Source: a virus
Lineage: Duplodnaviria > Caudoviricetes
Strand: one strand, 5' to 3'
Length of the DNA: 24,096 nt
Virus record (IMG/VR): IMGVR_UViG_3300048862_000005
Location: 1-24,096 of that record
Shown in pieces: positions 5,189 to 12,474 of this stretch (position 1 is its first letter; the number at the start of each line of letters is the position of its first letter). The translations under genes were made by a program, and so were the position numbers. The notes below the pieces were generated by a model, which ran no database searches, had not been told where the DNA came from, and saw nothing but the letters and a program-made list of their open reading frames with translations.

Positions 5189-5779
5189 ATGGATATCCAA
5201 TTCAAGAGCGCGTTCGACGCGGTGCGGTTTGCGCTGTGCTACTCGTCGCAGCAGTACGGCGAGACGCTGATAGCAAAGCGTCTGCGTGGCGAGTTAGTCG
5301 GCAGCGGGATGGGGTTGGTCGGGCTCGATGGCGCGGGGCAGGCGGGGCTCATCCGCCGCAGAATCGAGGAGCTTCCTGAGTTGCATATGTCTGTCATCAT
5401 CGCGCGCGCGGCGCCGCGTGACCTGCCGTGCTCGTGCAGATCGACATGCTGCAGCGGCCGCACACCGAACCTCGAGTGGCGAGCGGCGATTGGTTGGCTG
5501 ACCACCGCGTCCGCTGCATACTGCTCGGGCTTCTCACACTATCGTGTGCGACGAGCCATCATTGAACGTATGTTCGGGGTGAAGTGTGACCTCGCCGATA
5601 TTGCGCACGACTGTACCGTGCATGTAAATACGGTTAGCAAGCAGAATGCGGCGGTGCGCCGCTGGATCGAGGGCGATCGGAAAAACGACAAAGACCCCGG
5701 CGTCGAGCGTGTTGCGTGGTCGGCACTTGAGCGTCGGTTCGATGAGATCAAGCTGTTGAAGCGGGCGGCGGAAGTCTGA
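5189..5779 (+). CDS. putative late-gene regulator (Q-position, Cys-rich with C-terminal HTH-like segment)
   Basis: Last early gene before the late promoter; CSCxxxCC cluster; LADIAHDCTVHVNTVSK HTH-like stretch. Confidence 0.6.
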   Translation: MDIQFKSAFDAVRFALCYSSQQYGETLIAKRLRGELVGSGMGLVGLDGAGQAGLIRRRIEELPELHMSVIIARAAPRDLPCSCRSTCCSGRTPNLEWRAAIGWLTTASAAYCSGFSHYRVRRAIIERMFGVKCDLADIAHDCTVHVNTVSKQNAAVRRWIEGDRKNDKDPGVERVAWSALERRFDEIKLLKRAAEV

Positions 5780-5818: not shown

Positions 5819-6001
5819 TCATGCAGCTAGCTCTGCTGTTAGCTCTGGGTGGCGCACGATTAGCCGCATCAGGCATAGTACGCCTCCCGGGGTCGTCACT
5901 CGGCCGGTCCGAGATTGGGCTTCGGTCAGCGCCTGTCGCAAATCTGGCAGTGGCTCGCCTGCGTCCGCTTCGATGGCCTTGGCAATTTTTTCCACGTCCA
6001 T
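5819..6001 (-). pseudogene. HigA-like antitoxin apparently lacking its HTH
   Basis: Directly downstream of the toxin; N-terminal MDVEKIAKAIEADAG joined directly to C-terminal PGGVLCLMRLIVRHPEL; only 60 aa. Confidence 0.55.
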
Positions 6002-6002
6002 G

Positions 6003-6298
6003 TCACACTACCTTTTGAATGTCCTTGGGAAGCATGTTCTCTCGCTCGGCTTTGGCATAAACAGCTACGAGCAGCACCGCTTCCTCATCGGCCAGATTGA
6101 AGTAGATTACCCGCGCACCATTGGATTTCCTGTGCCTGCGCGTTTCCAGCGCACCTTGCGCGCTCCATCCGCACCGGGAATCACGTCGCCCACGTCCGCG
6201 TGGTTCGCAATCCAAGCGATGAATTCCAGGCGCTCGTCCTCGGACCAAAGGCGTTCGGCTTGCTTTTGGAAGGTGAGGGTTTCGATGACGGTGCGCAT
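6003..6298 (-). pseudogene. RelE/HigB-2-like toxin, frameshifted
   Basis: MRTVIETLTF...GDVIPGADGARKVRW in one frame, KSNGARVIYF...LLVAVYAK in another; 1-nt loss at about 6128. Confidence 0.85.
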
Positions 6299-6304
6299 GG
6301 GATG

Positions 6305-6351: not shown

Positions 6352-6380
6352 TTGACAATGTGTGTTTTACACACAATAAT
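6352..6380 (+). promoter_or_regulatory. late promoter (pR'-like)
   Basis: TTGACA-17 bp-AATAAT; spacer contains IR TGTGTGT-TTT-ACACACA (6359-6375). Confidence 0.75.
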
Positions 6381-6465
6381 CCGCAATATTCGATACACGT
6401 CATACGTGCGTCCAAAGTCAGTATAGTGCTAGTTTTGCAACTCTAGCCCCCGTATTCAATCGCAA

Positions 6466-8187: not shown

Positions 8188-8622
8188 ATGCCTGGAGTCA
8201 AAGGTAAATCAGGCGGAAAACGACCCGGCGCAGGGCGTGGGCCTTTCAAACCGACCGAAGAGCAACGCGATTTGGTAATGCAGTTGGCCGCCTTCGGTCT
8301 GCGCCATTCGGAAATCTGCCTGCTCATCAAGGGTGCTAATGGCAGGCCGATCAGTGAGCCGACGATGCGAAAAAATTTCGCTATTGAACTCGATACAGGA
8401 AAGCTCAAAGCCAACGTCAAGGTGGCGCAGACGCTCTACAAGAAAGCCATCGCGGGTGACAGGACTTCGATTATTTTCTGGTTAAAAACGCAAGCTGGCT
8501 GGAAAGACACGCAGCGCGTCGAGTTGACGGGTAACAATGGTGGACCGGTGCAGTCGATCTCCACCGTGACAAGCGATCCGATTGAGGCCGCGAAGGTGTA
8601 TATGAAGATGATGAAACCGTGA
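8188..8622 (+). CDS. terS: terminase small subunit
   Basis: GGKRPGAGR N-terminus, IIFWLKTQAGWKD, VELTGNNGGPV motif; upstream of terL. Confidence 0.8.
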   Translation: MPGVKGKSGGKRPGAGRGPFKPTEEQRDLVMQLAAFGLRHSEICLLIKGANGRPISEPTMRKNFAIELDTGKLKANVKVAQTLYKKAIAGDRTSIIFWLKTQAGWKDTQRVELTGNNGGPVQSISTVTSDPIEAAKVYMKMMKP

Positions 8623-8628
8623 CTGTGC

Positions 8629-9111
8629 TTACGAATGGGTAGAAGCGTGACGAGGCAAATCGCCAGCCAGCCATGCCATGACGCGTTCGTATCGAGTCAT
8701 TTGGACATTGGGCTCCAGATCGAGCCGGACAGCCTCTCCAAAATGTGCCGGATTGTATAGCGCACCGAGCACGACAGAATCCTGCTGTTGGAGCTTATTT
8801 AATTCTTCGTGCAATTGCTCATTGGTGAGGGAACTCGCACGCGCATACAGGGCATCGTAAGCTGCCCGTTGCAGGTTGGCTTGTACGGCTCTCGTCGCTG
8901 GCTGATAAACGATTGTAAAGCAGGTAATTGCACATAGCATCACGGCAATCGAATACTGCAACCAGGACGCGACGCCGGCAAAGATCGATGCGCTGAGAAA
9001 GAGCGTCAGAAATGACGCGCCCCGATCGACTCGTCCAAGTAGGGTTGCGGTCATACGCTCCAGGCGAGCGGACAGGCAAATTTGAAAGATCAGTTCGGGG
9101 CGCGTCATCAT
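8629..9111 (-). CDS. two-TM membrane protein, SLATT-like accessory (moron)
   Basis: Two adjacent hydrophobic segments followed by a helical cytoplasmic tail; opposite strand to the late operon. Confidence 0.7.
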   Translation of the reverse strand: MMTRPELIFQICLSARLERMTATLLGRVDRGASFLTLFLSASIFAGVASWLQYSIAVMLCAITCFTIVYQPATRAVQANLQRAAYDALYARASSLTNEQLHEELNKLQQQDSVVLGALYNPAHFGEAVRLDLEPNVQMTRYERVMAWLAGDLPRHASTHS

Positions 9112-9255: not shown

Positions 9256-9302
9256 GTTTTTCTCCTGATAGGGTTAAAAGGGTCACACCAGAATCCTATC
9301 AT

Positions 9303-9332
9303 GCTCGCGCCGGGTAACTGGCGCGGGCTTTT
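9303..9332 (+). terminator. terminator hairpin preceding repeat unit 1
   Basis: GCTCGCGCCGG-GTAA-CTGGCGCGGGC-TTTT. Confidence 0.6.
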
Positions 9333-9666
9333 CCATTACGCATTACAGCCGATTCCGTTTCCTCATGGTTTTTGCAATTCTGATTATGTGCAGGTATTCG
9401 AATAGTGGGCATAGCGGCTGAGCGAAAGTCAGCGGGCTTATTGTGTGATCGACTCTTAAGCCATCCAGACCGTCAGGTCGCCGACCAGGACAAGCCGGCG
9501 AGTGTACGCAACAACCCCGGCAGTGCGTCAAGCTCTGATCCTTACGGCAAGGACGCACCGCTGACCCGGCTTGAAGGGTATGAACGTGTAGTAATCACCA
9601 AAAAGTCATCGTAAAAGCGAAAGCCCCGACCGCTGCTAACGGTTCGGGGCTTTCTTGCATCAACCC
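9320..9666 (+). repeat. repeat unit 1: degenerate terL 5' copy (9347-9423), structured segment and hairpin
   Basis: Aligns by eye with about 10365-10700 and with terL 10879-10956; ATG lost and two TAG stops (9403, 9412). Confidence 0.9.
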
Positions 9667-9691
9667 TCTGGAACAATCAGAAGGAAGGCAT
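9612..9691 (-). ncRNA. predicted cis-antisense sRNA against peptide P1 leader
   Basis: Minus-strand extended -10 TGcTAAAAT (hexamer 9703-9698), 17 bp from CCGCAA; ends at hairpin 9619-9654 followed by a U-rich tail. Confidence 0.5.
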
Positions 9692-9693
9692 AG

Positions 9694-9837
9694 GTGGATT
9701 TTAGCAAACTCATTAGGGAGTTGCGGATGATGTTGAAGGAAATGCCAGCTCAAAGGTTTTGGGCGCTATGGATTGTGGCGCTGTGCTTCGGGGTGGGGTA
9801 TCTCGCTAAATCCGTCAGCCTTTTCTTTGAACATTAA
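9694..9837 (+). CDS. small hydrophobic peptide P1 (VDFSKLIRELRMMLKEMPAQRFWALWIVALCFGVGYLAKSVSLFFEH), type I toxin-like
   Basis: GTG 9694 with AAGGAAGG RBS; alternative ATG 9727 with AGGGAG RBS; single TM segment. Confidence 0.65.
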   Translation: MDFSKLIRELRMMLKEMPAQRFWALWIVALCFGVGYLAKSVSLFFEH

Positions 9838-9909
9838 GTGTGAAGTCGGTCGCAACGACGATTCCGGAAAACGGAAGCGATCTCGTATCGGCTAAAGATA
9901 GACGCGAAG

Positions 9910-10041
9910 ATGAATTCAACCGATGCTGGCATTGTAGCGCGCAGACTGGCTAATGCCGCATTGATCCTAGCAGCCGGGGCCTTTTGCTTTGGGTTTGGTT
10001 CCGGTATCGGCTACATCGTACACGCGATTCGCTGGTGGTAG
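9910..10041 (+). CDS. small hydrophobic peptide P2 (MNSTDAGIVARRLANAALILAAGAFCFGFGSGIGYIVHAIRWW)
   Basis: 43 aa, TM segment, C-terminus VHAIRWW shared with P4. Confidence 0.55.
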   Translation: MNSTDAGIVARRLANAALILAAGAFCFGFGSGIGYIVHAIRWW

Positions 10042-10047
10042 TTGCAA

Positions 10048-10164
10048 ATGATGTTGAAGGAAATGCCACCTCAAAGGTTTTGGGCGATCTGGCTGCTTGG
10101 CTTGTTGTATTTCTCAGCCAAATTCCTTGATGCGCCCGTTATCGTTTCGTGGTTGAGCCGATAA
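10048..10164 (+). CDS. small hydrophobic peptide P3 (MMLKEMPPQRFWAIWLLGLLYFSAKFLDAPVIVSWLSR)
   Basis: 38 aa; first 45 nt or so nearly identical to P1 9727-9771. Confidence 0.55.
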   Translation: MMLKEMPPQRFWAIWLLGLLYFSAKFLDAPVIVSWLSR

Positions 10165-10364
10165 AAAGCCAAGATTGACGCAAGCATGACCAGAACAGTG
10201 CAAGAACAGCAAGGACCGAGCGGCAAGCCGTTTATCAAAGGGTAAGCAAATTGGATCTGATCTCCGCGTGCCAGGCCAAGACGCCGATGTGTTTGGGGGA
10301 TGGAGTTCATCATGACCTAAGGCAGTCGATGAGTGCCCTCAACCGAGCCCGCATCAGGCGGCTT

Positions 10365-10700
10365 ACGTGGGCTTTTACATACCCTCGTTACATGCCGATT
10401 CCGTTTTCTTATGATTTCCGCAATCCTGATTATGTGCAGGTGTTCGAATGGCGGGCGGAGCGACTAGGCGAAAGCCAGCGGGCTCTTTTACGGTCATCCA
10501 GAACGCCAAGTCGTAGGCTAGGGCAAGCCGGCGAGTGCCCGCAACAACCCGGGCAGTACATCATGCCTTTCTCCTGGCCTGCAAGGATGCACCGCTGACC
10601 CGGCGTAAAGGGTATGAACGTGTAGTAACCACCAAAAAGTTGTCATAAAAGCGAAAGCCCCGAGCCGTTGGTAGCGGTCGGGGCTTTCTTGCATCAACCC
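10365..10700 (+). repeat. repeat unit 2: terL 5' copy (10392-10469), structured segment and hairpin
   Basis: [25 protein letters not shown] versus Ter[26 protein letters not shown]; frame stays open to TGA 10598 (68 aa). Confidence 0.9.
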
Positions 10701-10727
10701 GTTGAAAAAGGCAACGAGAGGATCTTG
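10646..10727 (-). ncRNA. predicted cis-antisense sRNA against peptide P4 leader
   Basis: Minus-strand TTTTAA-17-TATACT (-10 at 10739-10734); ends at hairpin 10653-10688 followed by a U-rich tail. Confidence 0.5.
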
Positions 10728-10864
10728 TGAAGAAGTATACGACATTCTTGAGGGAGTTAAAAATGATCTCCAATGAGCTGAAGCCAACCCGCTATTGGTC
10801 TGTCTGGTTCATCGCGTTCCTTATCGCCGCATCGACTTTTGTGCACGCGATCCGCTGGTGGTGA
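10727..10864 (+). CDS. small hydrophobic peptide P4 (VKKYTTFLRELKMISNELKPTRYWSVWFIAFLIAASTFVHAIRWW), type I toxin-like
   Basis: GTG 10727 with GAGAGGA RBS; alternative ATG 10763 with AGGGAG RBS; same two-start layout as P1. Confidence 0.65.
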   Translation: MKKYTTFLRELKMISNELKPTRYWSVWFIAFLIAASTFVHAIRWW

Positions 10865-10878
10865 AAGAGACGTGAATC

Positions 10879-12474
10879 ATGCCGATTCCGTTTCCCCATG
10901 ATTTCCGCAACCCTGATTATGTACAGGTATTCGAATGGCGGGCGGAGCGGCTGAGCCGGATTCGCGCCAACCCGGCGACGTTGCCTGCGCTGAAAACCTA
11001 CTATCGGGATCACCCTGGGCAGTTCGTCATCGACTGGGGCATGACGTTCGACCCGCGTAATGTCGAGCGGAGGTTGCCCGCGACGATTCCATTTCTGCTG
11101 TTTCCAAAGCAGGAAGCGTGGTGCGACTGGTTCATGGAGCGTTGGAAGGCGCAGGAGCCGGGCATTACGGAGAAGACCCGCGACATGGGCATGTCGTGGC
11201 TGACGGTGGCGCTGGCAGACACGATCTGCCTATTTCACGAGGGGGTGGTAGCCGGTTTCGGCTCGCGTAAGGAAGAGTATGTCGACAAGATCGGCTCGCC
11301 AAAGAGCCTGTTCTGGAAGGCGCGCGAGTTTCTGCGCCTATTGCCCCCAGAGTTCCGCGGTTCGTGGGACATCGGCACACACGCGCCGCACATGCGCATT
11401 ATTTTTCCGGACACCGGGTCAGTCATCACTGGAGAGTCCGGCGACGGCATCGGTCGTGGCGACCGCGCGAGCTTCTATGTCGTGGATGAATCGGCGTTCC
11501 TCGAACGGCCACAACTGATCGACGCGTCGCTGTCGGCGACGACGAACTGCCGACTGGACATCTCGACGCCGAACGGCATGGGCAATTCGTTTGCACAGCG
11601 CCGGCATAGCGGCAAGATTGCTGTGTTCACATTCCACTGGCGCGACGATCCGCGCAAGGATGACGCGTGGTATGCGAAGCAGTGCGCCGAGCTCGACCCG
11701 GTCATCGTTGCGCAGGAGATCGACATCAACTACGCGGCATCCATCGAGGGCGTCGTAATCCCGTCAGCATGGGTGCAAGCGGCGATCGGCGCGCACCTGA
11801 AGCTTGGCATCGAGCCAAGCGGCTTGCGGCGCGGCGGACTCGACGTTGCCGACGAGGGCAAAGACAAGAATGCATTTGCGGGCCGCTACGGGTTTCTGCT
11901 GAACTTCCTGCGGTCGTGGTCAGGCCGCGGCGGCGACATTTACCAGACGGTCGAACGCACGTTCGGCATCTGCGATGAGCTTGGCTATGAGTCGTTCGAC
12001 TACGATGCTGACGGGCTTGGCGCAGGCGTGCGCGGCGACGCACGCGTCATCAACGAGCAACGCATCGCCGCTGGCAAGCGACCGATCAATGACGAGCCAT
12101 TTCGCGGGTCAGGGCCGGTCCACGATCCGGAGGGCGAGATGGTCCCGGAACGGAAGAACAAGGACTATTTCGCGAACCTCAAGGCGCAGTCGTGGTGGGC
12201 GCTGCGGTTGCGCTTTCAGGCCACATACCGCGCGGTCGTTGAAGGTATGCATTATGACCCCGACGAAATCATCTCAATCGACCCGGCGCTGCCGGAGTTG
12301 ACCGCGCTCGTAATGGAATTGTCGCAGCCGACCTATACCGTCAACGGTGTTGGAAAAATCGTGATTGACAAGACGCCGGAAGGCACGAGATCGCCTAACC
12401 TGGCTGATGCCGTCATGATCGCATACCAGCCGGCCGGACAGGCGCTAGACATCTGGACAAGGTTGGCAAGATGA
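10879..12474 (+). CDS. terL: terminase large subunit
   Basis: Walker A-like [10 protein letters not shown], Walker B YVVDE, ISTP coupling motif, nuclease GLDVAD and C-terminal SPNLADA. Confidence 0.95.

Follow-up and report, generated by a model that had tools for sequence, protein, structure and literature searches.

The window, by which we mean the whole stretch of 24,096 nucleotides analysed here, is a 24-kb virus record that is 54% complete. It comes from a temperate tailed phage and carries, besides terminase genes, repressor, replication, RusA, ParB-methylase, portal, head and sheath genes. Two diverged repeat units separate the terminase small subunit gene terS (8188..8622, plus strand; phrog_309, E 1e-15) from an intact terminase large subunit gene terL (10879..12474, plus strand; phrog_2, E 1e-27). 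A terminator-like hairpin, consisting of an 11-bp stem and a T run, is located 5' of unit 1 (9303..9333, plus strand). The plus strand of this region also contains ORFs for hydrophobic peptides, of which those at 9694..9837 and 10727..10864 are discussed below. The ORF at 9910..10041 ends in IRWW (phrog_12997, E 4e-4), and is followed by a phrog_6632-like ORF at 10042..10164 (E 0.003). Because the IRWW peptide is 98% identical to a hypothetical protein of Mycetohabitans rhizoxinica, the host of the phage probably belongs to the genus Mycetohabitans.

Some observations concern the flanks of this region. Directly after terS, on the minus strand, lies a gene for a 160-aa protein whose N-terminal half is hydrophobic (phrog_6315, 8629-9111). 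An Atlas lead connects it to SLATT_4 (score 0.89, 12% of members), and it is possibly a defence moron. A promoter-like sequence, TTGACA-17-AATAAT (6353-6381), which is likely the late promoter, follows an unassigned 196-aa gene in the Q position (5189-5779). Short antisense ORFs occupy 5900-6300 on the minus strand, and one of these, phrog_5869 (6107-6298), looks by its position like one half of a toxin-antitoxin pair with its apparently broken neighbour.

Pieces of terminase genes accompany the units. The region 9349..9423 (plus strand) holds the decayed first ~26 codons of terL, with the start lost and an in-frame stop (tblastn, 76% to terL residues 2-26), and 10392..10466 (plus strand; tblastn; repeat family D1) again repeats the initial ~25 codons of terL. 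A decayed 5' piece of the gene in the terS position of a second related phage type is found at 10194..10295 (plus strand; tblastn, E 1e-4); the gene that it matches lies immediately 5' of terL in G006. Using a pattern taken from the 3' part of the unit, we detected nine loci on five contigs which, together with the two of the window, gave 13 distinct copies, 10 of them complete. Upstream of the shared element, six copies have a terL-like piece and seven a promoter-terminator leader, and related proviruses carry one to four copies in shuffled order. The fragments of terL and terS resemble scars left by recombination, and we infer that a late-leader cassette of a related prophage type recombined into the start of terL and brought the window copies with it. 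Repeated exchange among related prophages, and not a dedicated mobile element, would be the underlying process. An integrative cassette or intron that restores terL was rejected, because other copies follow the promoter-terminator leader without a terL piece and no match to a splicing RNA was obtained. One decayed copy (L370, 766-936, minus strand) has lost the pseudoknot core described below and the second CCGGC, and has kept an ACCC/GGGT stem.

A pseudoknot and a bulged hairpin in each unit

Each unit contains an H-type pseudoknot, formed by stems P1 and P2, followed by a long bulged hairpin, P3. This fold differs from the one proposed in an earlier note on the same DNA, whose list of pairings contained neither P1 nor the pseudoknot. 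In unit 1, the pseudoknot (9488..9521, plus strand) comprises P1 (9488-91/9504-07, with one G-A mismatch) and P2 (9494-98/9517-21); its first loop is AA, its second has 5 nt and its third is A-rich. A hinge A (9522) connects it to P3 (9523-58), which has a pyrimidine-rich loop and a purine bulge on its 3' side (9522..9558 together, plus strand). In unit 2, the pseudoknot (10521..10554, plus strand) comprises P1 (10521-24/10537-40), with an A-U to G-C swap, and P2 (10527-31/10550-54), with one G-G mismatch. It is followed by the hinge A and a weakened P3 (10555..10592, plus strand), which carries a G-C to A-U swap and an A-C mismatch. Because each copy thus carries a mismatch in its core (P1 G-A in unit 1, P2 G-G in unit 2), both window copies may be decaying. 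Two further hairpins on the plus strand of unit 1 are clade-specific, namely a small upstream hairpin P0 (9468..9479; ensemble p=0.81), which is paired in 95% of cases without any double change, and an ACCC/GGGT hairpin (9564..9579). The folding energy of the whole units is not better than that of shuffled sequences (z -0.13 and -0.93), and the U-G and G-U pairs are consistent with a plus-strand RNA.

The evidence for the pseudoknot comes from relatives. A first pattern, containing what is common to the Rfam RF03044 consensus (see below) and the window, matched 109 viral loci, in which stem P1 around an AAGCCGG-NN-AGU loop was mostly kept even though the flanks were free to vary. In a second pattern, GCCGG and the downstream CCGGC each had their two central bases left free; 120 of ~890 matching loci in viral contigs and 120 of ~500 in genomes were listed. 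Among the matches listed, which formed 120 clusters, a Watson-Crick P2 centre was present in 19 of the 28 clusters with a P1 of at least 3 bp, versus 6 of the 92 others (p=1.2e-10). Six types of paired centre were seen (CG/CG, CA/UG, AC/GU, UA/UA, UG/CA and GG/CC). Since P1 and a Watson-Crick P2 centre go together, with six different paired centres, the element is an H-type pseudoknot. Changes on both sides were found for four of the five P1 pairs and two of the five P2 pairs on 37 chosen rows, a count that is partly circular because pairing was itself a criterion for choosing the rows and the pattern had already dictated three P2 pairs.

P3 was absent from all search patterns and thereby offers an unbiased test. 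A P3 of at least seven pairs that opens at the G after the hinge was present in 14/19 true clusters versus 23/86 chance clusters; at a cut-off of eight pairs the difference was not significant (5/19 versus 13/86), and an earlier test with 5-bp stems was weak (33/38, with 22 expected). We also built a covariance model, R1, from 34 rows that left out the clade of the window. Its strong matches in the window are the two units only, with 50.2 bits for unit 1 and 44.4 bits for unit 2. R1 matched 16/151, 11/151 and 1/151 sampled genomes; in the last sample, which was ordered around one E. coli genome, the only match was in that central genome. The first two samples gave 36 matches, of which we examined the 23 that were outside the clade of the window and had not been seen earlier. 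A P3 of at least six pairs was present in all 12 new matches with an intact core versus 8 of the 11 others, although four further matches with a U-G closing pair were wrongly counted as broken. The commonest 3' bulge of P3 is UGA (16/43), and the window copies belong to a subtype with 7 bp and a purine bulge. The hinge is a G in one R1 match only (L407). Covariation across homologs supports P1, P2 and P3.

These results bear on the proposals of the earlier note, which had described a switchable leader or non-coding RNA controlling the peptide genes. All the sequence strings it listed are present where it had placed them. Across 15 close copies, 97% pairing was seen for the P3 stem (9523-29/9552-58), which it had recognized; the ensemble p of this stem is 0.99 in unit 1, but 0.00 in unit 2 with its A-C mismatch. 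The compensatory swap in this stem is real, one pair being G-C in 10, G-U in 3 and A-U in 2 of these copies. The ACCC/GGGT hairpin is indeed present in 15/15 close copies; it never varies, and is therefore uninformative on pairing. The note had further assigned GCCGG to the CCGGC at 9566-70 (p=0.03), and the partner turns out to be the nearer CCGGC at 9517-21 (p=0.95).

At the centre of the switch stood a long-range helix (9428-34/9559-65), which would exclude a GAAA hairpin formed by its 5' strand and, together with a leader ORF ending at the TGA in CGCTGAC, would control the peptides. In unit 1 the helix and the hairpin are predicted as alternatives (p 0.32 and 0.67), and GCCGG of unit 2 has no perfect partner other than the second CCGGC. 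However, the corresponding probabilities in unit 2 are 0.04 and 0.15, and the helix, with 7/7 and 6/7 pairs in the window, has at most 5/7 in the eight other complete copies. Only 27.6% of the cells are paired, and no compensatory change is seen (unit 2 being out of register in the alignment). The 5' strand is outside the shared element, which begins near 9440-9460, and at least one perfect 7-bp helix arises by chance in 53% of shuffled 186-nt units. Of the six copies with a terL-like piece, one has a leader frame that extends to the noted stop, and in the others the frame ends after 18-25 codons. As far as the copies compared tell, the long-range helix and the leader-ORF stop are local accidents. 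What stands of the proposal is a conserved, covarying non-coding RNA; the switch is not supported, its pairing and the ORF stop being absent from relatives. Nor is control dedicated to the peptide genes supported, given the presence of the motif before holin, terS, HNH and other genes and the occurrence of the peptide module apart from the motif. We consider such a switch very improbable.

Relation to Proteo-phage-1 and distribution of the motif

Screening the whole window against Rfam gave no matches at E up to 1. When the scan was narrowed to 9300-10900 (1.6 kb), the Rfam search, which the earlier note had suggested, yielded weak matches, among them one in unit 1 to RF03044, Proteo-phage-1, with 20.1 bits at 9455-9525 (gathering score 42). 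Unit 2 was not listed for this family at E up to 10. Both units, with one mismatch each, share with Proteo-phage-1 the stem closing an AAGCCGG-NN-AGU loop, the A-rich linker and the CCGGCAG end, and also the non-coding site in a proteobacterial phage, here between terS and terL. They differ in that the Rfam model has a two-part upstream hairpin, whereas the window has the 4-bp hairpin P0; many relatives lack the two-part hairpin. Moreover, the Rfam model stops at the hinge and so lacks P3, and its printed structure line lacks the pseudoknot. On these comparisons of sequence and predicted structure, the window RNA is a divergent, below-threshold relative of Proteo-phage-1, ~70 nt long and encoded on the plus strand. 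Most other relatives are also below the RF03044 threshold, which was passed by 2/20, 0/12 and 0/10 loci; two of the R1 rows are above it.

Proteo-phage-1 was reportedly first described in Weinberg et al. 2017. Rfam lists RF03044 as "Gene; sRNA" with no assigned function. A full-text literature search found no mention of "Proteo-phage-1" and nothing on the motif apart from the source on P22G discussed below; the main text of PMC5737381, in the part available, holds no passage on it.

The RNA is widespread in phages of proteobacteria. Titled genomes with intact copies are mostly from Proteobacteria (Pseudomonas, Escherichia, Dyella, Rhodanobacter, Stenotrophomonas, Burkholderia, Acidithiobacillus and Arsukibacterium), and two copies of enterobacterial type are in assemblies labelled as other taxa. 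A close variant, the enterobacterial form, is present in P22, HK022 and Sf6; it was found in 165 phage records, including Sf6, HK620 and ST104, and in 1123/5426 E. coli genomes, and sits between lysis and terminase genes. Across the family, the motif precedes holin, terS, HNH and other genes, inside long operons or in an early arm. It is located 2-3 kb into operons, often kilobases from the promoter, and sometimes just behind a tRNA. In one locus (L403) it occupies 1501-1547, between int-alpA and isrK/C4 RNAs, within a satellite-type immunity leader (645-1823).

A full-text search with short motifs led to PMC13397905, whose accessible text describes P22G, a 204-nt P22 RNA seen after infection, with "no known function". 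P22G runs in the sense direction of the late operon, includes the core of the enterobacterial form together with P3, and starts ~78 nt 5' of the core. It is described there merely as an expressed RNA, and the word "pseudoknot" is not in the main text available. P22G may have arisen through degradation of the late mRNA.

A predicted antisense RNA and peptide module downstream

Downstream of the pseudoknot RNA, each unit carries a predicted antisense RNA that overlaps the start of a hydrophobic peptide ORF. In unit 1, a two-hairpin RNA with inferred ends is predicted on the minus strand (9612..9703; fold z -5.35). It has a sar-like hairpin at 9619-54 and a second one at 9664-84, and a -10-like hexamer (9698-9703) lies inside the start of the peptide ORF at 9694..9837 (plus strand; phrog_6632, E 1.8e-14; hydropathy 1.86). 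The predicted counterpart in unit 2 (10646..10739, minus strand, ends inferred; fold z -4.95) has its hairpin at 10653-88 and its hexamer at 10734-39, and is paired with the ORF at 10727..10864 (plus strand; phrog_6632, E 9.6e-9). The hexamer is placed alike in relatives and also in Rac-SA53 and SEN34; in these two, the hairpin and peptide are found between tail genes.

No Rfam family matched the module above threshold, its sub-threshold matches being sar and ctRNA; PtaRNA1, considered as a candidate, had no Rfam match. For sar (RF00262) the scores were 22.0 and 19.6 bits, versus a gathering score of 43. The module resembles P22 sar in that its predicted antisense RNA has two hairpins, the terminator hairpin being similar in both, but its target would be the phrog_6632 peptide, whereas that of sar is an antirepressor. 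A small hydrophobic peptide with a predicted overlapping antisense RNA and promoter also resembles a type I toxin-antitoxin system. The peptides have no Pfam or NCBIfam family, their Atlas matches scored below 0.9, and a plasmid search was weak. Matches to the phrog_6632 peptide are present in 53 phage records, between tail or lysis genes; matches also occur in SPN3UB and Pseudomonas phages.

A blastn search with unit 1 against annotated phages returned the hairpin only, in two records, and R1 had no match at the hairpin and peptide loci L364, L365 and L375 of related proviruses. By its occurrence in these genomes, the hairpin with its peptide is a moron separate from the pseudoknot RNA. It is likely an antisense-controlled membrane peptide in the style of type I toxin-antitoxin systems, and an uncatalogued candidate. 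The peptide genes are thus likely not the target of the pseudoknot RNA, and are probably controlled by their own antisense RNA. In a related provirus (L011, 1679-2773), the module stands ahead of a 364-aa low-GC cargo ORF and has no peptide. In the related proviruses L005, L007 and L008, the neighbours upstream of the module copies are type II toxin-antitoxin pairs in antisense orientation, RelE-like ones among them.

Likeness to HK022 put and other possible roles

To our knowledge, HK022 put is the main known case of antitermination by RNA only. The sequence of putL in the HK022 record shows a 5-bp stem, AA, a 5-bp stem, an A-rich strand, one purine and a stem started by G, so that its order of elements is the same as in our motif. 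A candidate for putR shows the same order by eye. The available text of PMC9378689, which aligns ten put sequences, describes a cryo-EM structure with a 5' duplex, a minor-groove triplex and a G35 hinge, in agreement with this reading of putL. The likeness comprises a pseudoknotted stem I with an AA loop, an A-rich third strand, a purine hinge and a long bulged stem II, and extends to the length of ~70 nt and the location in long phage operons. In 18.7 kb of sequence, one descriptor returned only putL and HK022's own late copy of the motif, versus 0.05 matches per shuffle; this descriptor was composed with the layout of put known, and a single mismatch in each of the two window copies makes them fail it.

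There are also clear differences. R1 matched neither putL nor putR, and the sequences differ. The second loop has 5 nt in the motif and 0 in put, the U28 bulge of put has no counterpart, and the motif is not near a promoter. The hinge is an A instead of the essential G35, and the same text of PMC9378689 gives a G35A put as inactive. The window RNA is not a member of put and at best works like it.

We rank an action of this kind first among the possible mechanisms, since put is the one characterized RNA that we found with such a scaffold and setting, and we hold it tentatively, at somewhat less than even odds. HK022 put binds the zinc-binding domain of the beta-prime subunit and thereby suppresses pausing and termination. 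By analogy, the nascent plus-strand RNA of ~70 nt would act like HK022 put in long phage operons: the pseudoknot, joined to the bulged hairpin via one unpaired purine, would bind RNA polymerase, and this binding would reduce pausing or termination and so favour read-through. Both the binding of polymerase and any anti-pausing effect are extrapolated from put. Several points speak against it: the 300 nt that follow the motif show no enrichment of terminator-like sites (6/51, versus 8/51 upstream), the operons that carry the motif are already served by Q, a long open frame encloses it at 9/36 loci, and a put-like action leaves unexplained the enrichment of an anti-Shine-Dalgarno motif in P3. CCUCC or CUCCU occurs no more than 70 nt 3' of the core in 16/36 clusters versus 9/86 chance matches (4.6 expected by shuffling), and in 6/12 of the new R1 matches (1.6 expected).

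Because of this enrichment, trans-acting and translational roles also stay under consideration. The RNA could be a nuclease-resistant product freed from the operon transcript that represses translation in trans through the anti-Shine-Dalgarno loop of P3, as C4 or IsrK would. The P22 copy, embedded in the 204-nt P22G of PMC13397905, would suit such a product as far as that text goes, but its start upstream of the core and its possible origin in decay of the late message speak against it, as do several members with short P3 loops that lack the motif. A tRNA-like CCA follows P3 in only 3/47 copies, and on this count a tRNA-like RNase P substrate of the C4 type was rejected. A search of the 60 nt before and the 200 nt after the motif gave no C4-type cognate partner. 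We regard repression in trans as unlikely, although it is the foremost of the alternatives. Somewhat less probable still is translational control in cis, in which the P3 loop would pair with the next ribosome-binding site, or the fold would shield the 5' end of a processed message. It shares the support of the anti-Shine-Dalgarno enrichment, and in 12/47 copies a start codon with a Shine-Dalgarno sequence lies at most 45 nt from P3, eight of them at 20-23 nt. Against it, two tests showed no preference for a copy's own flanks over foreign ones, upstream or downstream, and in unit 1 the first peptide start is ~135 nt after P3, behind a strong hairpin. In three clades, pairing of the P3 loop with the upstream or downstream flank, as a kissing contact or third pseudoknot, appeared plausible by eye; it was rejected after failing two own-versus-foreign tests.

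A resemblance to twister ribozyme motifs was considered and rejected; Rfam gave no match. A self-cleaving ribozyme that cuts polycistronic phage RNA would fit the compact pseudoknot, the conserved unpaired bases, the conserved 3' bulge and the intercistronic site, which is sometimes just behind a tRNA. Yet no Rfam ribozyme family matched at E up to 10 in 9300-10900, loop bases vary among the model matches and P22G, as described in the text of PMC13397905 at hand, runs across the core uncut. We consider cleavage improbable.

Returning to the put-like reading, its broader form would make Proteo-phage-1 and HK022 put two branches of one scaffold of pseudoknot, hinge and hairpin, which we regard as doubtful but conceivable. 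If so, control of RNA polymerase by nascent RNA without proteins would be common in proteobacterial phages, the element would add to the action of Q inside the late operons of P22, Sf6 and HK022, and several copies of it would be present in phages like that of the window. An orphan motif with the scaffold of put stands unannotated in late operons of laboratory phages and in about one fifth of the complete genomes of E. coli. That the RNA is real is well supported, and a catalogued orphan family here receives a fuller structure and a testable link to put. Even if the RNA is not put-like, the corrected structure, with its pseudoknot, hinge, bulged P3 and anti-Shine-Dalgarno loop, is a usable model for a family mostly missed by Rfam. 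An extra short hairpin with a GAAAGA or GAGAGA loop, absent from the window, stands just after P3 in L123, L013, L250, L350 and L389, which include enterobacterial, Pseudomonas and other members.
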